From positions 32,001 to 96,000 of IMG/VR virus record IMGVR_UViG_3300025168_000032: a DNA stretch of 64,000 nt. One strand, 5' to 3'. This document shows, piece by piece, positions 31,652 through 50,115 of the stretch. Under the pieces are notes generated by a model. The model was given only the letters and a program-made list of their open reading frames with translations, was not told the origin of the DNA and ran no database searches. The position numbers were made by a program, and so were the translations under genes. Source of the DNA: a virus. Position 1 is the stretch's first letter; each line of letters begins with the position of its first letter.

Positions 31652-32208
31652 ATCTTACAAGCGAAGAAGTAGCAAGAATTATAGAGCAAGAGATAAGCGC
31701 GGTCCTTTCCGAGAAGGATGATCGCTGTACTCGTATTGCTAAACGTAAATATGATGTGTGGCCTTCTGCCTACGCCTCTGGCGCCGTTGTTAGGTGCCGC
31801 AAGGGCGAAATCTGGAAAGATGTAAAGGAAGAGGTGACCGATGATGAGGAGGGCGAACTCGAAGATATTGAGGACGAGTTGAAGAATGCCTCGAAAATGC
31901 ATAAAGGCCAAGCCGATAGGATTGACAAGGTCCTAAAAGAAGACGAGCTTGATGAAGAAGAAAAGAAGGCTTGTAAACCTTCTAAGGGCAAACGTTTCGC
32001 AAAAAGGGTTGACGGTAAGTGTCGCTCATTCGGACAAAAAGGGCAAGCCAAAGGCGGGGGAGATAGAATCAGACCCGGCACAAAGAAGGGTGATGCCTAC
32101 TGTGCGAGATCCGCAAAAATTAAAAAATGTAAAAACCCACCTTGTGCCAATACCCTGTCCAGAAAGAAATGGAAGTGCCGTGGTTCTAAATCAGTAGCTG
32201 AGGAATAA
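31648..32208 (+). CDS. Cys/Lys-rich modular protein, putative internal head protein
   Basis: ATGA overlap; MNLTSEEVARIIEQEI N-terminus; YDVWPSAYASGAVVRCRK and GDAYCARS modules. Confidence 0.55.
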   Translation: MNLTSEEVARIIEQEISAVLSEKDDRCTRIAKRKYDVWPSAYASGAVVRCRKGEIWKDVKEEVTDDEEGELEDIEDELKNASKMHKGQADRIDKVLKEDELDEEEKKACKPSKGKRFAKRVDGKCRSFGQKGQAKGGGDRIRPGTKKGDAYCARSAKIKKCKNPPCANTLSRKKWKCRGSKSVAEE

Positions 32209-43791: not shown

Positions 43792-45699
43792 ATGGCTAAA
43801 AAATATGGAAGAAAAGGGAATAACCCCTATAATGAAACGAACAAGCTGTTCAAGTCACTTACAAGACTGTTTTCTGGACCAATAGTCAATCGCAGAACTC
43901 AGACGGGTAGGGAGATTCGGAGAAGACATCTCGATATATATGCTAATCGATTTAAGTCAGCCTCCGGTAAACAATTTAAAAAGACTGAATACAACCCCAT
44001 GAACGTTATGGCGGTCAATATGATTTCCAACAGAAACCGATCTGAGCGTTATGTCGACTTTGATCAAATGGAATACGAACCTATCATTGCTTCGGCATTA
44101 GATATTTACGCAGACGAGATGACGACCCACTCAAGTTTGAACCCAATGTTGCAAATCAAGTGTGCAAATGATGAAATCAAGTCAGTTCTTGAATCCTTGT
44201 ATTTTAATGTTCTTAACATCAACCACAATTTATTTGGTTGGTCTCGAACTATGTGTAAATACGGTGACCTCTTTCTTTATTTAGATATGGATGAAGACGC
44301 TGGGATTAGAAACTGTATTGGGCTGCCCCCTCAAGAAGTCGAAAGACTTGAGGGGGAAGACGAAAGTAATCCGAATTACGTTCAATACCAATGGAACTCT
44401 GCTGGTCTCACGCTTGAGAATTGGCAGGTTGCTCACTTTAGAGTGTTAGGGAACGATAAAAACGTTCCTTATGGAACCTCTGTGCTTGAGCCGGCTCGTC
44501 GTATTTGGAGACAACTCACCCTTCTTGAGGACGCAATGATGGCCTATCGTATCGTCAGGTCACCAGAAAGGAGAGTATTTAAAATTGATGTTGGCAATAT
44601 AGCCCCTCAAGATGTAGAGCAGTATATGCAGAAAGTCATGACCCAGATGAAGCGTCACCAAGTTGTCGATCCTAGTACTGGTCGTGTTGATCTTCGCTAC
44701 AACCCACTATCAATAGAAGAGGATTATTTTATTCCTGTTCGCGGTGGATCTGCGTCTGAGATCACTAATTTGCCCGGTGGACAATTCACGGGAACAGTAG
44801 AAGATGTTAAATATCTCAAAGACAAGCTTTTTGCTGCGATTAAAATTCCGCAAGCTTACCTTACAATGGGTGAGGGTGCCATGGAGGATAAGACGACCCT
44901 TGCACAGAAAGATATTCGCTTTTCAAGAACCATTCAACGTCTACAGCGTGTTATTATATCGGAGCTTGAAAAGATTGGTATTATACATCTATTCACTCTT
45001 GGGTTCAGGGGGGATGACCTTCTTTCATTCTCTCTTCATCTCAACAACCCTTCTAAGATTGCTGAACTGCAAGAGCTTGAGCACTGGAAAAGCAAGTTTG
45101 AAGCTGCGAGCGCAGCAACAGAAGGTTATTTTTCTAAACGTTGGGTGGCAGAGCACATGCTTGGTATATCAGAAGATGAATTCATCAGAAATCAAAGAGA
45201 GATGTTTCATGATATGAAATTCGCAACACAACTTCAAGGCGGAGAAGGACAAGGAGAAGGTGGTGGTCTGGGTGGAGACCTAGGTGGTGATCTTGGTGGT
45301 GACCTTGGTGGAGATGACCTTGGTGGTGACCTTGACTTGGGCGGCGAAGGAGACGCAGAACCAGCCGGTGGCGATGAAGAAGACGATGTTTTATTAGCAG
45401 AGCCACCAGCCAAGAGAGATGACGGCTCTCAATATAAACGAGGCAAGTATAAAAGACACCAGATGAATTATAATAAAGGCGGCAGAAAGAAGAATTTCAA
45501 AAACCAAGCCACCGGAGAATACGGCAACACAGCAAGGACTGCTTTGCCCATGGGCTCTACAGAGCTTAGACAATTATCAAAAGGTATTACGGAATCACAC
45601 AAAGTTGAAGAAAACAAACTATTTAATACAAAGTATGAAATTGATAAACTTTTAGAAGGCCTTATAAAAACGGAGAAAAAAGATCATGAAGCACAATAA
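43792..45699 (+). CDS. portal protein, T4 gp20-like
   Basis: LEDAMMAYRIVRSPERRVFKIDVGN, EEDYFIPVRGG, EITNLPGG, LFAAIKIP. Confidence 0.93.
   Translation: MAKKYGRKGNNPYNETNKLFKSLTRLFSGPIVNRRTQTGREIRRRHLDIYANRFKSASGKQFKKTEYNPMNVMAVNMISNRNRSERYVDFDQMEYEPIIASALDIYADEMTTHSSLNPMLQIKCANDEIKSVLESLYFNVLNINHNLFGWSRTMCKYGDLFLYLDMDEDAGIRNCIGLPPQEVERLEGEDESNPNYVQYQWNSAGLTLENWQVAHFRVLGNDKNVPYGTSVLEPARRIWRQLTLLEDAMMAYRIVRSPERRVFKIDVGNIAPQDVEQYMQKVMTQMKRHQVVDPSTGRVDLRYNPLSIEEDYFIPVRGGSASEITNLPGGQFTGTVEDVKYLKDKLFAAIKIPQAYLTMGEGAMEDKTTLAQKDIRFSRTIQRLQRVIISELEKIGIIHLFTLGFRGDDLLSFSLHLNNPSKIAELQELEHWKSKFEAASAATEGYFSKRWVAEHMLGISEDEFIRNQREMFHDMKFATQLQGGEGQGEGGGLGGDLGGDLGGDLGGDDLGGDLDLGGEGDAEPAGGDEEDDVLLAEPPAKRDDGSQYKRGKYKRHQMNYNKGGRKKNFKNQATGEYGNTARTALPMGSTELRQLSKGITESHKVEENKLFNTKYEIDKLLEGLIKTEKKDHEAQ
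45240..45350 (+). repeat. Gly-Asp-Leu coding tandem repeat (GGDL units) in portal C-terminal tail
   Basis: GGLGGDLGGDLGGDLGGDDLGGDLDLGG. Confidence 0.8.
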
Positions 45700-46507
45700 G
45701 AAAAGAAATACCGCTTTTCTTTATGAATGTCTTGTTAAAGAACTCACAAAAGCAATTGTTCGCAAGGACAAACAAAAGCGGCAAAACATTATTAAGATTA
45801 TAAAGGAGAGTTTTAAAAAAGACTCTGTCCTTAAGCAAGATTTGGATATTTACCGATCAATTCTTGAGGGTAAAAAAGTAAGCAAAGAATTCGCGATACG
45901 ACTTCTTGCTGAAACGAAGAAAGATTTCGAAAACATTGATAGAAAAATGGTCTTCAACCAGCAAACTGTATTAATTAAAGAGATTAACGAGACACTGTCG
46001 CCAACAGCATTTGCTAATTTTATCTCAAACTACAAAGATATGGCATCAATTGGGGCATATCTAAACTCCAAACTTAAAGCGAAGAATCGTATTCTTGTTG
46101 AAGGCCGCTTGATTCAATCGATGTCAACGGAGAAAAGCGAAAAACGCGATCTTTCTCATGTCGACAACCTCACATACAAGACATTTACTAATAAATTTAA
46201 TAAAACTTATGGCAATAGCCTAAGAAGAGAGCAGAAAGATCTTTTAATGAATTATATTATTTCATTCTCTGATAACGGCTTGGGTCTTAAATCGTTCTTA
46301 AACGAGGAAATTTCGCGTCTTAAGATTAACCTACACGAATGTACCAAAACGCAAAAAATAGCAAAAAATGAGGCGTTTTTAGCCAAAACAAAGCAAGTTT
46401 TGAATAAACTTGAGAATTTTAAAAACACTCCAATTACAGAAGAAGTAGTTAAGGATGTATTTTTAATTCAGAATCTTGTTGCGGAGGTATCAAACAATGC
46501 CAGTTAA
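45686..46507 (+). CDS. conserved hypothetical protein (possible prohead core component)
   Basis: MKHNKKRNTAFLYECLVKE; lies between portal and protease. Confidence 0.55.
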   Translation: MKHNKKRNTAFLYECLVKELTKAIVRKDKQKRQNIIKIIKESFKKDSVLKQDLDIYRSILEGKKVSKEFAIRLLAETKKDFENIDRKMVFNQQTVLIKEINETLSPTAFANFISNYKDMASIGAYLNSKLKAKNRILVEGRLIQSMSTEKSEKRDLSHVDNLTYKTFTNKFNKTYGNSLRREQKDLLMNYIISFSDNGLGLKSFLNEEISRLKINLHECTKTQKIAKNEAFLAKTKQVLNKLENFKNTPITEEVVKDVFLIQNLVAEVSNNAS

Positions 46508-47075
46508 GGTAAATATAAACTCTGATGATGTTAATATTAAAGTGAAAGAAACGATTAAAATTAATATACAAAATAGCAACAAACAAATGCTTGAATTTCA
46601 ATTGATGATGAGGGAAGCGTTAAATGGAGATCTTATGATCTTTGACCACTCTGACATCGATATCGTTGTTATGACTGAAAAGAAAAAAGTTGTGGCCTTT
46701 GCTAAAGACCTAATGACAGAAATCGTATATGGCGCAGAGAGTCGCTTATTTGACCACCTAAAAAAGACAGGGATTATCGCTTACGATTCTATACAAGGTG
46801 GAAACGTTTATGGTTCCCTTGAGGCGAAGATTCATGAGGCTAAAAAAGCTGACGGTATTAAAGCCACTTTATACGAAATAAGTCAATGGATTGATAGCGA
46901 AAGACCATACATGAAATCGTCCAAAGGCCATGATGATATGATGGACGATTTCGTTCTAGACCCGAATGACGAAAGGTCAACAGAGTTTGGCGAAGTGCCA
47001 CACGAAGAAGAGAAGGGCTCCATTAAGCAGCATGGCTTGTTTGCCCCTTACATGTACGGCAGATACATATATTAG
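46497..47075 (+). CDS. conserved hypothetical protein
   Basis: ATG 46497 after GGAGGT; C-terminal EFGEVPHEEEKGSI. Confidence 0.6.
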   Translation: MPVKVNINSDDVNIKVKETIKINIQNSNKQMLEFQLMMREALNGDLMIFDHSDIDIVVMTEKKKVVAFAKDLMTEIVYGAESRLFDHLKKTGIIAYDSIQGGNVYGSLEAKIHEAKKADGIKATLYEISQWIDSERPYMKSSKGHDDMMDDFVLDPNDERSTEFGEVPHEEEKGSIKQHGLFAPYMYGRYIY

Positions 47076-47083
47076 GAGACTAA

Positions 47084-47389
47084 GTGGACTTAATCTATTT
47101 TATTCTTGCTGCATACGGTATGACATTTATGTTGGTATACGGCAAGATATTTGAAGACATTCGACCCAAGAAAGATTACACAAAAAAGTGGAATACTTTG
47201 TGGCATTGCCCTTTATGTGTTTCTTTCCATGTGGGGTGGTTGTTAGTACTCTTGTCGCCGTACACGAGTCTTTGGAATTATGAAATTACTTTTGCTAATA
47301 TGTTCTTAATGGGTTGCTTGTCGGCAGGCACAAGCTATTTCCTATCTATGGTAGTTAAAGACGATGGAATACAAATAAAAAAGACTTGA
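47084..47389 (+). CDS. small membrane protein with CxxC (DUF1360-like)
   Basis: GTG start after AGGAG; hydrophobic helices around HCPLCVSFHVGW. Confidence 0.65.
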   Translation: MDLIYFILAAYGMTFMLVYGKIFEDIRPKKDYTKKWNTLWHCPLCVSFHVGWLLVLLSPYTSLWNYEITFANMFLMGCLSAGTSYFLSMVVKDDGIQIKKT

Positions 47390-48196
47390 GTAAAAACCCA
47401 ACCAAAGACTATTTACTATTGTGAGGGTTTGAGAATGAAGTCTGGTATTTATATTATTAAAAATTTGCTAAATGGTAAAGTTTATGTAGGAAGTGCTGTT
47501 TCCATCAAGAAGCGGTGGACAAGGCACAAACACCAACTCAACAAAAACAAACACCACTCAGAGCATTTACAGAGATCTTGGAACAAGTATGGAAAAGATA
47601 ACTTTTCTTTTGAAGTGCTACAAGTGGTAGCAAATAAGAAAGATTTAATTTTTGAAGAGCAAAGGCATATAGATAGGCTCAAATCATATGATAGAAAATT
47701 TGGATACAACATTAGTCCCACAGCAGGCTCTTCGTTGGGAGTAAAACACACGGATGAAATGAAAAGAAAGGTCTCAATGGCCAACAAGGGCAAAAAGATT
47801 TCCTCAGAAACAAGGAGAAAGATGTCTTTATCAAAAATGGGAGAAAGAAATCCCATGCATAAGTATGTTTACTCAAAAGAACAAAAGAAGAAAATGTCCG
47901 AAAGGAATTCTGGGAAAGGAAATCCATTTTATGGCAAGAGGCATTCTGCTGAAACAAGAAAGAAAATATCTGAAACACCCAGAAAAAAATATAAACCAAA
48001 AACAAAACAACATATCGATAAAATAACAGAAGCCAGTATCGAAACAAGAAGAAACAAGTCTAAACTAAATGAAGAGGCTGTCATCGAGATAAGAAGACTG
48101 AGAGAGGAAGAGAAAATGAAAATAAAAGATATAGCACAAAAATTTAACCTTCAAACGGGCCACGTTGGTAAAATATGCCGTTATGAAATTTGGAAA
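47219..48196 (+). mobile_element. homing-endonuclease cassette carrying a replacement 3' end for the host gene
   Basis: Diverged duplicate of the gene 3' half + promoter motif + GIY-YIG ORF; orphaned 3' half resumes at ~48197. Confidence 0.7.
47409..47416 (+). promoter_or_regulatory. candidate late-promoter motif CTATTTAC for the endonuclease
   Basis: In the 45-nt gap before ATG 47435, upstream of GAGG. Confidence 0.5.
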
Positions 48197-48202
48197 GTTT
48201 AG
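47435..48202 (+). CDS. GIY-YIG homing endonuclease with NUMOD3 repeats and C-terminal HTH
   Basis: SGIYIIKNLLNGKVYVGS; HSAETRKKIS, NPFYGK and GERNPM repeats; KLNEEAVIEIR...IAQKFN HTH. Confidence 0.92.
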   Translation: MKSGIYIIKNLLNGKVYVGSAVSIKKRWTRHKHQLNKNKHHSEHLQRSWNKYGKDNFSFEVLQVVANKKDLIFEEQRHIDRLKSYDRKFGYNISPTAGSSLGVKHTDEMKRKVSMANKGKKISSETRRKMSLSKMGERNPMHKYVYSKEQKKKMSERNSGKGNPFYGKRHSAETRKKISETPRKKYKPKTKQHIDKITEASIETRRNKSKLNEEAVIEIRRLREEEKMKIKDIAQKFNLQTGHVGKICRYEIWKV

Positions 48203-48384
48203 GTTTTTGGGTTGGGTGTTTCTTATTTTTGATAAATGGTTTCACTGAACTATTTACTTTCGAGTATTCAATCGCAAATATGTTTATATGCGGATGCATC
48301 TCAGCCGGAACCTCCTACTTTCTATCAATGACTGTAAAAGATGAAGGCATAAATATTAACCATATAGGAGTTGGTCATGACTAA
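48197..48384 (+). pseudogene. displaced original 3' half of the DUF1360-like gene
   Basis: LGFWVG...ANMFICGCISAGTSYFLSMTVKDEG aligns with VSFHVG...ANMFLMGCLSAGTSYFLSMVVKDDG of 47084 ORF; no convincing start or SD. Confidence 0.75.
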
Positions 48385-48430
48385 GAAATGGATGCTTCAA
48401 CCAGTAAGACGTTGCTGTAGCGGAAGCTGA
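48377..48430 (+). CDS. 17-aa micro-ORF MTKKWMLQPVRRCCSGS
   Basis: AGGAG 6 nt before ATG; overlaps upstream stop; followed at once by a terminator. Confidence 0.5.
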   Translation: MTKKWMLQPVRRCCSGS

Positions 48431-48433
48431 CTC

Positions 48434-48457
48434 GTGGGGGTAGCGCCCCCACTTTTT
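48434..48457 (+). terminator. rho-independent terminator
   Basis: GTGGGGG-TAGCG-CCCCCAC then TTTTT. Confidence 0.85.
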
Positions 48458-48476
48458 ACTTTTAAGGAACCCCAAA

Positions 48477-48848
48477 ATGAAACTAACAGCAAAATTATTG
48501 AGAGAAATGATTAAAAAAGAATTAAAAGAGGCATATCAACAAGGCCTTTTCGGTGGCGAAACCAAGGTACAGCCAGTATCTCCCTCCCCCGAGAGTCCCC
48601 CGGTAGTCGTAGAACCTTGGCAAAAGCTTGAGAATCTAGCAAGAATGACAAATAAAGAGTTTATGGATTTGAACCTTGGCTTGAAAATGGTTCGCAAACT
48701 TTATAAACTTCACCCGAACTGGAATATCGGTGATGATGTGCCAAAAATAACACAAATTATTCCAATGCACGGTGGTACAATTGAAGTCGTATTTTCAGAT
48801 GGAAAGCAAGAGGTGTTGAGCCCACAAACCTATTATCGTGGCAATTAG
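48477..48848 (+). CDS. hypothetical protein with MKLTxxLLxEMIKKEL N-terminus
   Basis: Same N-terminal helix pattern as 31648 and 38564 ORFs. Confidence 0.65.
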   Translation: MKLTAKLLREMIKKELKEAYQQGLFGGETKVQPVSPSPESPPVVVEPWQKLENLARMTNKEFMDLNLGLKMVRKLYKLHPNWNIGDDVPKITQIIPMHGGTIEVVFSDGKQEVLSPQTYYRGN

Positions 48849-48857
48849 GAGAATACT

Positions 48858-49481
48858 ATGGCTAAAAAACTTTTAACAGAATTTTACGAACTTTGCAAAG
48901 ATGGTATATGCCAAGATCTTTTAACTGAGCGAGAAAAGAGAGAAGTGTCCAATGGTACCGTTTATCTATCAGGGAGAATGCAAACCTGTGAAATGAAAAA
49001 CGGTAATGGGAGAATTTATCCTTGCGATGTTCTTAGAAAAGAAGTGCAAAATTATCAAAATGTTATTAAAGACAACAGGGCCTTGGGAGAATTAGACCAC
49101 CCAGATGATTCCATAATCAACCTCAGAAACGTATCCCACGTTATAACAGACATGTGGTGGGAAGGAAAAGATGTAATGGGTAAGATAAAGATCCTTGATA
49201 CACCATCTGGTAATATTCTAAAAGGACTTGTCGAGTCTGGTATAAAGCTTGGTATATCAAGTCGGGGCCTCGGCTCTGTAAAGGAAAGCCGTGAAGGCAC
49301 CATTGTTCAAGAAGATTTTGAACTAATTTGTTTCGACATTGTATCCGAACCTTCAACACCTGACGCTTATATGTATCCTAAAAACCAACAAAGTGAGTCA
49401 CCAAAGATGTACGAAAGCAAAATAAAGCGGAAGAGTGATCTAATTATTGATGATTTGTTTAACAAAATTTTGAGAGACTAA
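48858..49481 (+). CDS. prohead (head maturation) protease, T4 gp21-like
   Basis: NGRIYP, ALGELDHP (His), GISSRGLGSV (Ser), FDIVSEPS. Confidence 0.93.
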   Translation: MAKKLLTEFYELCKDGICQDLLTEREKREVSNGTVYLSGRMQTCEMKNGNGRIYPCDVLRKEVQNYQNVIKDNRALGELDHPDDSIINLRNVSHVITDMWWEGKDVMGKIKILDTPSGNILKGLVESGIKLGISSRGLGSVKESREGTIVQEDFELICFDIVSEPSTPDAYMYPKNQQSESPKMYESKIKRKSDLIIDDLFNKILRD

Positions 49482-49909
49482 TGAATAAAAACGAAATTAA
49501 AAAAATACTAAAGCCTTTAATCAAAGAATGCATAAAAGAAGTTGTATTCGAAGAAAAGGGAGCCTTATCACATATAATAAGTGAAGTTGTTGACGGCTTA
49601 CATTTAACTAAAAAACAAGTGGTAACAGAATCACTGCCGGAAAAGAACCTACAGCCGGAATACACTTCACGGAAGAAAGTCAATCACGCTCTCAAAGAGC
49701 ATAAGAAGAAACTTTTAGACGCAATTGGCGCTGAAGCATACGGTGGAATCAACATTTTTGAAGGTACAACTCCTGCGCCTTCTCCTGCTGGAAATGGTAA
49801 TCAGGGGGCATTATCTGGTTTAGACCCAAAAGATCCGGGGGTTGATATATCAAATATATTTGGAAACAAATCTTCTACAATATTTAACAAAATGATGGGA
49901 AAGAAATAA
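49481..49909 (+). CDS. conserved hypothetical protein
   Basis: MNKNEIKKILKPLIKECIKEV; coupled between protease and bS21. Confidence 0.65.
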   Translation: MNKNEIKKILKPLIKECIKEVVFEEKGALSHIISEVVDGLHLTKKQVVTESLPEKNLQPEYTSRKKVNHALKEHKKKLLDAIGAEAYGGINIFEGTTPAPSPAGNGNQGALSGLDPKDPGVDISNIFGNKSSTIFNKMMGKK

Positions 49910-50115
49910 TGGCTACAAATCTAGTCGTCTATCCAAGGCGAAATGAAAATATAGAACGAGTTATCAAGCGATTTAGCAAGAAAATAAAAAAACTTGGTAT
50001 TCTCGACGATTACAGAGATAAGCAAAGTTACATGAAGCCCTCTGAAAAAAGAAGGAGAGCCAAAAAGCGCTCCGACAGAAGACGAGCAAAAGAACTCGCA
50101 AAACAAAAAAGATAA
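49909..50115 (+). CDS. rpsU: 30S ribosomal protein bS21 (phage-encoded)
   Basis: 68 aa; ENIERVIKRFSKK...YMKPSEKRRRAKKR. Confidence 0.88.
   Translation: MATNLVVYPRRNENIERVIKRFSKKIKKLGILDDYRDKQSYMKPSEKRRRAKKRSDRRRAKELAKQKR

Follow-up and report, generated by a model that had tools for sequence, protein, structure and literature searches.

A probable homing endonuclease cassette that brings a foreign 3' half to its target gene in a T4-like marine phage

Introduction

The 64,000-nucleotide stretch of phage DNA studied here (the window; positions 32,001 to 96,000 of IMG/VR virus record IMGVR_UViG_3300025168_000032) contains a small gene, which we call X, followed by a free-standing GIY-YIG endonuclease gene and then by a second copy of the 3' half of X. 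The question raised by this locus is how one gene came to be accompanied by two versions of its C-terminal half, with an endonuclease gene between them. The host contig is a single sequence of 185,652 bp from a marine T4-like phage. We found that the C-half fused to X is foreign and that the displaced C-half is native, that the same layout with common junctions recurs in other phage lineages, and that no intron is present. Positions 47219-48202 are best read as a mobile cassette, made up of the replacement C-half (Ca), a spacer, and the endonuclease gene, which would home into X at the CxxC codon. We put the probability of this reading at roughly 0.78. The remainder of the text sets out the evidence for it, the observations that tell against it, and the alternatives.

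Organization of the locus

The initial annotation had described X running as far as HCPLC (47218), a complete C-half, a promoter motif, a GIY-YIG open reading frame (ORF), and a second C-half, in that order. Every element was recovered where it had been placed, as follows.

47084-47389, plus strand: gene X ORF, 101 amino acids; GTG start behind AGGAG; HCPLC ends at 47218
47084-47218, plus strand: native N-half of X, from the GTG start through the second Cys codon of HCPLC
47219-47389, plus strand: Ca, the foreign replacement C-half, fused in frame to the native N-half and with its own stop; first part of the cassette
47390-47434, plus strand: cassette spacer, 45 nucleotides (nt), with CTATTTAC at 47409-47416 and a Shine-Dalgarno (SD)-like GAGGG before the endonuclease ATG
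47435-48202, plus strand: GIY-YIG/NUMOD3 endonuclease gene, 255 amino acids, free-standing and I-TevI-like; not in frame with X
48198-48384, plus strand: remnant, the displaced native C-half of X; 62 codons, open through the native stop, without an SD

The second C-half lies in an open frame (48190-48384) that opens only after a TGA at 48184-48186 and closes with TAA at 48382-48384. This second C-half aligns without gaps to X residues 46-100, with 30 of 55 residues identical (BLASTP E 1e-20), and the two halves are about 55% identical in DNA. Identity of about 55% in both protein and DNA indicates that the two are old alleles of each other rather than synonymous variants. The claim of the initial annotation that the halves match in protein and differ at synonymous sites was therefore wrong in degree.

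Homologues of X were collected as 197 protein clusters (about 100 amino acids; marine metagenomes and viromes), and 80 of 126 IMG/VR loci carrying X were kept. No match to positions 46400-49000 (blastn) or to X (tblastn) was obtained in the GenBank phage collection. From its sequence, X is tentatively a small CxxC membrane protein with a weak likeness to Pfam family DUF1360 (PF07098). The window protein gave no match to this family at E <= 0.1, the allele L002 scored weakly (14.1 bits), and the relative P0100 reached 27.3 bits (cut-off, 21).

Source databases often label relatives of the endonuclease "group I intron endonuclease," and the locus could accordingly be taken for a group I intron or an intein with an encoded endonuclease, with X restored by splicing to the downstream half. 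The ORF is preceded by 45 nt and followed by 0 nt, which leaves no room for an intron core, as the initial annotation had held, and no Rfam match was found in 46400-49000 at E <= 1. X is already complete, its C-half being conserved, under selection, and closed by a stop codon, and the endonuclease is out of frame with X. The intron or intein was rejected on the Rfam result, and we assign it next to no probability.

Empty alleles and junctions

Empty alleles in which CPLC and LGFWVG are contiguous had been predicted, and such alleles were found at L001, L002, L007, and L010. In these, X is uninterrupted (...HCPLC-LGFWVGCFLFLINGF...), and the same four loci also have the flanking genes closest to those of the window. 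Comparison of the window with these empty alleles located both ends of the inserted DNA. On the left, homology extends up to the CxxC codons. On the right, homology of the remnant begins with the final GT of the second Cys codon, at 48197/48198. Since the left homology ends and the remnant begins at CxxC, the two ends of the insert fall at a single point of the empty gene, and this meeting of the two junctions suggests that the endonuclease may cut empty X. The second half had been said to begin exactly at the equivalent codon; the match in fact starts slightly earlier, within the second Cys codon. The endonuclease stop, TAG at 48200-48202, falls inside the first remnant codons, where relatives have TGG or GGG. 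The CxxC|(M/L)GF(W/H)VG junction is the most conserved DNA of X.

The segments on either side of the insertion resemble the empty alleles, and Ca does not. The window N-half is identical to those of L002 and L001 at 44 of 44 residues and to those of L010 and L007 at 43 of 44 (98-100%), compared with no more than 35 of 44 for the N-halves of other occupied alleles. In DNA it is 85-88% identical to its empty-allele relatives, which is similar to the value for the remnant. The remnant itself is 95-98% identical in amino acids and 89-93% in nucleotides to the C-halves of L002, L001, L010, and L007. Ca, in contrast, is about 54% identical in amino acids to L001, L002, L007, and L010 and 52-58% identical to any of the 80 IMG/VR alleles (per-segment tblastn and alignments). 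On these comparisons, X is a chimera of a native N-half and a foreign C-half.

Phylogeny of the C-halves

A maximum-likelihood tree of C-halves was built from 79 rows and only 64 columns. The nine endonuclease-linked Ca halves formed one clade (ultrafast bootstrap [UFboot] 99, Shimodaira-Hasegawa approximate likelihood ratio test [SH-aLRT] 89; 98% of bootstrap trees). The eight remnants required 6 label changes and were scattered among different local intact alleles; that of the window fell in a clade with support of 100/94 together with L002, L001, L010, L007, and P0012. The separate histories that the initial annotation had expected of the two halves were thus recovered, with the working halves in one clade and the remnants among local intact alleles.

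The two halves are homologous and adjacent, as they would also be after a tandem duplication of X or of its 3' half within the genome, followed by divergence and by the landing of an endonuclease between the copies independent of its own activity. When Ca and the remnant of the window were forced to be sisters, the approximately unbiased (AU) test rejected the constraint (delta lnL 51.3, p-AU 0.027). The remnant is 98% identical to intact alleles of other phages, Ca groups with the Ca halves of other genomes, and X is duplicated in none of the 80 loci that lack the endonuclease. Duplication within the genome was rejected on the AU test, and we regard it as extremely improbable.

Pairwise comparisons of Ca halves gave 16 synonymous and 1 replacement change for L121 and L219 and 21.5 and 7.5, respectively, for L217 and L218. 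These counts indicate purifying selection on Ca; between lineages, its synonymous sites are saturated. Taken together, purifying selection and synonymous saturation suggest that the association of Ca with the endonuclease is old and that Ca is a working coding segment; the chimeric X is probably functional.

Recurrence in other phage lineages

The Ca-type proteins P0002-P0005 were traced to their contigs, where a homologue of the endonuclease follows each of them after 41-45 nt. Every Ca-type allele for which downstream sequence is available is followed by this endonuclease (8 lineages), whereas none of the 80 other alleles is. The common order is X (a native-like N-half plus Ca), spacer, endonuclease, and a remnant that begins 0-5 nt past the endonuclease stop. 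This layout was found in at least six lineages, in which the endonucleases are 50-97% identical and the flanks differ. The lineages with the full layout are the window (with P0121); L121-L124; L209-L215 with L125; L217, L126, L220, and L221; L218; and L216.

The N-halves of the occupied alleles match intact alleles at 40-44 of 44 residues, except in the poorly sampled L216, and match each other at 33-37 of 44. They are therefore closer to intact alleles than to one another, which indicates that the foreign block begins at CxxC in each lineage. The splicing-free cassette with a foreign 3' half that the initial annotation had proposed is largely supported, by the chimera, by its recurrence, and by the absence of an intron. 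As a separate observation, the gene table of the P0129 contigs lists a 105-amino-acid gene followed by the endonuclease.

Two further features follow the remnant in the window.

48377-48430, plus strand: micro-ORF, 17 amino acids, MTKKWMLQPVRRCCSGS, ending ...QPVRRCCSGS; SD and start codon located within the 3' end of the remnant
48434-48457, plus strand: intrinsic terminator, a stem-loop (48434-48452; 8-bp stem with 6 GC pairs, 3-nt loop) plus a T-run

The micro-ORF overlaps the stop of native X or of the remnant, and its C-terminal (L/I)QPVRRCCSGS was found in every lineage examined. It is kept, with its own SD, even in L219, where the remnant has been lost. Its presence downstream of X or of the remnant in every lineage, L219 included, argues that it belongs to the native context and lies outside the cassette. 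The Ser codon family switches between AGC and TCT (window versus L121), which points to selection at the peptide level. The terminator closes the X operon, is conserved in relatives, and likewise is native context.

The endonuclease

Pfam analysis of the endonuclease revealed a GIY-YIG domain (PF01541, E 3.3e-10, above the cut-off) and three stretches of NUMOD3 (E 3.1e-18). Residues 1-95 align with the catalytic domain of I-TevI (1mk0) with an E value of 4e-18. Nine residues (I5, Y6, Y17, G19, R27, H31, H40, E75, and N92), in columns aligned with the I-TevI catalytic residues and with the GIY and YxG motifs, are invariant in 8 homologues. At the C terminus, a match to HTH_7 (E 0.0083, below the Pfam cut-off) is suggestive of a helix-turn-helix (HTH). 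The protein also matches PHROG homing endonuclease families, and its gene is single copy in its own genome.

Homology searches with the endonuclease returned a tight family at 50-97% identity (P0121-P0131), below which identity falls to about 45%. In the endonuclease tree, the X-linked enzymes form one clade with support of 99/99. A first IMG/VR scan returned nothing above 43% identity. A scan of metagenome contigs returned nothing above 46%, with query patterns that were generic GIY-YIG N-terminal words and hence uninformative on absence.

The spacer and its promoter-like motif

The spacer is near-identical in the window, L121, and L127. Its AAAACCC...CTATTTA core is kept in all related cassette spacers, including those of L209, L217, and L216, despite endonucleases that are 50% diverged. 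Over the 185.6-kb genome, CTATTTAY occurs 22 times on the plus strand, compared with 3 times on the minus strand, and about half of the plus-strand copies are intergenic, lying 20-40 nt upstream of an SD-ATG in the structural region. CTATTTAY is thus a plausible candidate for the promoter core, of late type, of this phage group, and its presence in the spacer suggests that the endonuclease is probably transcribed independently. The promoter motif named in the initial annotation corresponds to CTATTTAC, and its role as a promoter is read from the pattern. In a scan for sigma-70-type promoters, sites were no commoner than in shuffled sequence. A further copy of CTATTTAY lies within the remnant, in the TELFTF codons at 48250.

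A proposed route of homing

The following steps would account for the layout. In a mixed infection, the endonuclease would cut an empty X at or near the CxxC|(M/L)GF(W/H)VG junction. The left cut end would invade the conserved N-half of the donor, and Ca, the spacer, and the endonuclease gene would be copied; the right cut end would pair with the remnant already present in the donor. The recipient would retain its own N-half and its own C-half, the latter pushed downstream as an untranslated remnant, and X, now made up of the N-half plus Ca, would be whole without splicing. Occupied alleles should be immune, their target being split and the codons after CxxC perhaps altered. The first joint between endonuclease and remnant would have to have arisen illegitimately. 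Microhomology at that joint, for example, the TTGTA common to the end of the endonuclease (AAATTGTAG, in L121) and the target (TTGTATGG), is speculation.

Observations that weigh against the cassette

Several observations run counter to this account, some of them general and others specific to particular lineages or to the remnant. The comparison set consists entirely of metagenomic contigs, many of them short. Cleavage, its position, and the immunity of occupied alleles are points that we infer. The difference between Ca and native halves at the junction is not fully consistent. A Gly-to-Ser change (GGN to TCN) at position +2 after CxxC is found in 8 of 9 Ca halves and fails in L216, and FHVG, which occurs in the Ca half of the window as VSFHVG, also occurs in some native alleles.

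Two members of the endonuclease clade depart from the common order. In L219 (50-1400), a Ca-type X and an endonuclease (60% identical) are present without a remnant, and between the endonuclease stop and the micro-ORF lie about 70 nt of unrelated sequence. In L208 (242-1335), a clade member that is 58% identical lies 8 nt upstream of a complete X; this X reads CCLC, not CPLC, at the presumed target, and the 241 nt of sequence that precede the endonuclease contain no detectable Ca half. In the endonuclease tree, L219 is nested beside L209 and L208 is sister to L217 and L218, and from these positions both exceptions look derived.

In addition, the phylogenies of Ca and of the endonuclease are incongruent; the Ca halves of L121 and L219 are near-identical, and their endonucleases are about 60% identical. 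This incongruence argues that the cassette is itself a mosaic and no fixed unit. Comparison of the window with L121 shows about 70% identity over the N-half and the first 110 or so nt of Ca. Identity rises to 97-100% at about 47330, some 55 nt before the end of Ca, stays there across the spacer and into the 5' part of the endonuclease gene, and drops to about 80% in the middle of that gene. Ca and the endonuclease therefore appear to be linked as types and not as a clonal block.

These departures bear on an explanation in terms of ordinary intronless homing of the T4 SegF type. Here, an endonuclease encoded downstream of X would cut a rival X about 215 bp upstream, Ca would be a co-converted flank, and the remnant would be the inherited accident of one sloppy repair. 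The endonuclease gene indeed follows a complete X as a cistron in its own right, with a promoter-like motif and an SD, and L219 has exactly such a layout with no remnant. Incongruence between Ca and the endonuclease is what variable co-conversion tracts would be expected to produce, and marker exclusion of the SegF type is established for T4 (PMC2988022, ref. 35 therein). In each of six allele lineages, however, the remnant is the native one, and its starting nucleotide is the same, plus or minus 2. For native remnants to share a start, the element must have entered repeatedly, with the right-hand exchange falling at the junction, which one inherited accident would not explain. The N-halves, moreover, are native right up to CxxC in each lineage, and the endonuclease tree places L219 within the remnant-bearing lineages, which makes loss of its remnant the simpler reading. 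We consider homing of the SegF type very unlikely as an account of this locus and prefer the mobile cassette.

State of the remnant

The remnants of all six lineages are open frames of 55-62 codons. Their ratio of nonsynonymous to synonymous substitution rates (dN/dS) against the nearest intact allele is 0.01-0.08, equal to that of intact pairs, over dS values of 0.46-1.2. Open frames and low dN/dS mean that all of the insertions are recent or that the remnants have been refreshed or selected. These are grounds for supposing that the downstream half is a working gene, that is, that X, the endonuclease, and a second X' make up a stable operon in which a mini-protein with two transmembrane (TM) segments is translated from an (A/T)TG in the last codons of the endonuclease, or that this DNA is kept for the SD and start of the micropeptide or as a homing arm. 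In 5 of 6 lineages, the conserved I-W-K/N codons contain an in-frame ATG or TTG, and in L218 the overlap reads TAATG. The polymorphisms of the lineage 3 remnant comprise 3 third-position changes and 1 replacement, and the 3' end of the remnant contains the SD and start of the conserved micro-ORF.

Other features of the remnants speak against a working gene. There is no separate remnant family, as each remnant nests within local intact alleles. The remnant of the window is preceded by no SD, and that of L121 does not share the register of the (A/T)TG that might initiate its translation in other lineages. In lineage 4 (three near-identical contigs), the remnant is variable at 10 of 183 sites (5.5%), compared with no more than 0.7% for the N-half, Ca, the spacer, and the endonuclease. 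In lineage 3, 4 of about 165 remnant sites are variable (2.4%), compared with 1 of about 1,000 in the cassette. Taken over both lineages, the cassette varies by at most 0.6% and the remnant by 2.4-5.5%. The L220 remnant carries a G-to-E change in the S(A/S)G(T/S)SY motif together with three further replacements, while the rest of its locus differs by 0.7% or less. Of about 165 intact alleles, only one departs from Gly at this position, and none has Glu. Some 10 codons are missing from the start of the L216 remnant, and L219 does without a remnant, yet retains the micro-ORF with its own SD. We therefore regard the working gene as unlikely.

Set in order, the remnants would form a decay series: fresh, point-mutated at a near-invariant Gly, eroded at the 5' end, and deleted. 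Under the mobile-cassette reading, the remnant is taken to be a relic, regenerated whenever the cassette homes and decaying in between; recombination with intact alleles may also refresh it. That the displaced half is a selected part of the element or of the phage is unlikely but has an appreciable probability. It could then act as a right-hand homology arm, supply the SD and start of the CC micropeptide, or be translated into a 2-TM mini-protein through coupling to the endonuclease stop. A selected remnant would explain an open frame and a dN/dS of 0.01-0.08 in six lineages despite endonucleases diverged to 50% identity.

Relation to known systems

The closest parallels are the mORF gene hybrids of fungal mitochondria, first described for atp6 of Allomyces macrogynus and later for Rhizopus atp9, Mortierella cox2, and Glomus atp6, atp9, cox2, and nad3 (PMC3630166). 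The Allomyces atp6 precedent cited in the initial annotation is apt, in that the design is the same: an endonuclease ORF arrives with an in-frame foreign C terminus, and the native C*-terminus is displaced downstream (PMC3630166). In both systems, the native part is near the gene of a relative (91-98% identity in the mORFs and 89-93% of nucleotides here), and the inserted part is distant (64-81% and about 55%, respectively) and of different phylogenetic origin (PMC3630166). The differences are several. The mORFs reside in mitochondrial DNA, and the present element resides in a T4-like phage genome of 185.6 kb, where its target is the gene for a small CxxC membrane protein. Several of the fungal endonucleases are in phase with the gene, whereas the phage enzyme is encoded by a cistron of its own, behind a promoter-like motif and an SD. 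The mORFs encode mostly LAGLIDADG enzymes; that of the phage is an I-TevI-like GIY-YIG enzyme. In the phage case, moreover, the replacement halves of many lineages group in a single endonuclease-linked clade, and six allele lineages have been invaded separately. By this comparison, the element would work like a mitochondrial mORF, built from an I-TevI-like enzyme and placed in a new kind of genome.

Among phage systems, the T4 Seg enzymes (SegF, SegG, SegB, and SegE; PMC2988022, PMC2330249) resemble the present one in being free-standing GIY-YIG enzymes whose genes adjoin the presumed target in a T4-like phage. They share with it a presence or absence among relatives, hybrid co-converted flanks, and expression from a phage promoter, which is putative here. 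The occupied/empty polymorphism with hybrid flanks is apparent in that the endonuclease lies downstream of X in none of the 80 IMG/VR loci, and occupied alleles keep a native N-half and a remnant. Seg genes, however, are intergenic, and their homing replaces flanks and leaves behind no displaced gene half (PMC2988022). I-TevI, from the T4 td intron (1mk0 and 1ln0), has in common with the phage enzyme the GIY-YIG domain, the NUMOD3 linker repeats, and an HTH-like C-terminal end. It is encoded in a self-splicing group I intron, whereas the present element is intronless and the gene is mended by a spare 3' half. Aeh1 nrdA with mobE and T4 gene 39/60 with mobA (PMC2988022) likewise have a free-standing endonuclease gene inside a phage coding region without an intron. 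The pieces of those genes are both functional and join as subunits, whereas X has had one piece replaced and the other discarded.

In the phage literature searched, endonucleases are intron encoded, intein encoded, intergenic (Seg and Mob), or gene splitting. The words duplication, remnant, and pseudogene are absent from the T4 review PMC2988022, and a replaced gene end is not described in PMC10448857. No phage precedent was found in the literature searched, a weak negative given that subscription journals were poorly covered.

The locus would thus represent a further solution available to phages, in which the endonuclease carries a spare gene end, so far described for fungal mitochondria. The relatives provide a natural series of empty alleles, at least six invaded lineages with one junction, a Ca clade, and remnants at apparent stages of decay, and this series makes it possible to test with synthetic substrates where the target lies, whether occupied alleles are immune, and how long the co-conversion tracts are. 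It also offers a concrete route by which selfish nucleases may create chimeric genes and fragments in phage structural-gene clusters. Gene fragments of such origin would otherwise be annotated as small hypothetical ORFs.

Neighboring genes and further observations

The X locus lies among head genes, of which three were assigned.

43792-45699: T4-type portal gene (Portal_T4, E 3e-79), flanking the X locus
48858-49481: gp21-type prohead protease gene (Peptidase_S77, E 4e-35), flanking the X locus
49909-50115: bS21 homologue gene (Pfam E 5.5e-14), in the head-gene cluster beyond the prohead protease

The neighbors of X are identical in type across all 80 kept IMG/VR loci. A bS21 gene also is present on the related contigs L208, L210, L212, and L217. 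The C-terminal part of the portal protein (window positions 45250-45400) contains a low-complexity acidic, Gly-rich run, GGDLGGDLGGDLGGDD....

The intervals flanking X differ in length across L001-L080, ranging on the upstream side from about 10 to 3640 nt and on the downstream side from about 100 to 1644 nt, and contain at least 19 ORF clusters without a Pfam match. One large ORF family, with members of up to 464 amino acids, lies upstream of X in many of these loci. Among 10 representative ORFs from inserts beside X in the 80 relatives, no Pfam nuclease was found, and one ORF matched Laminin_G_3. The lack of a Pfam nuclease among these 10 ORFs argues against a general endonuclease hotspot in the neighborhood of X. 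At L053:2908-3627 there is a distant GIY-YIG gene (38% identical) that falls outside the X-linked clade. It lies between the homologue of an upstream 199-amino-acid gene and an ordinary X and is the sole such case among the 80.

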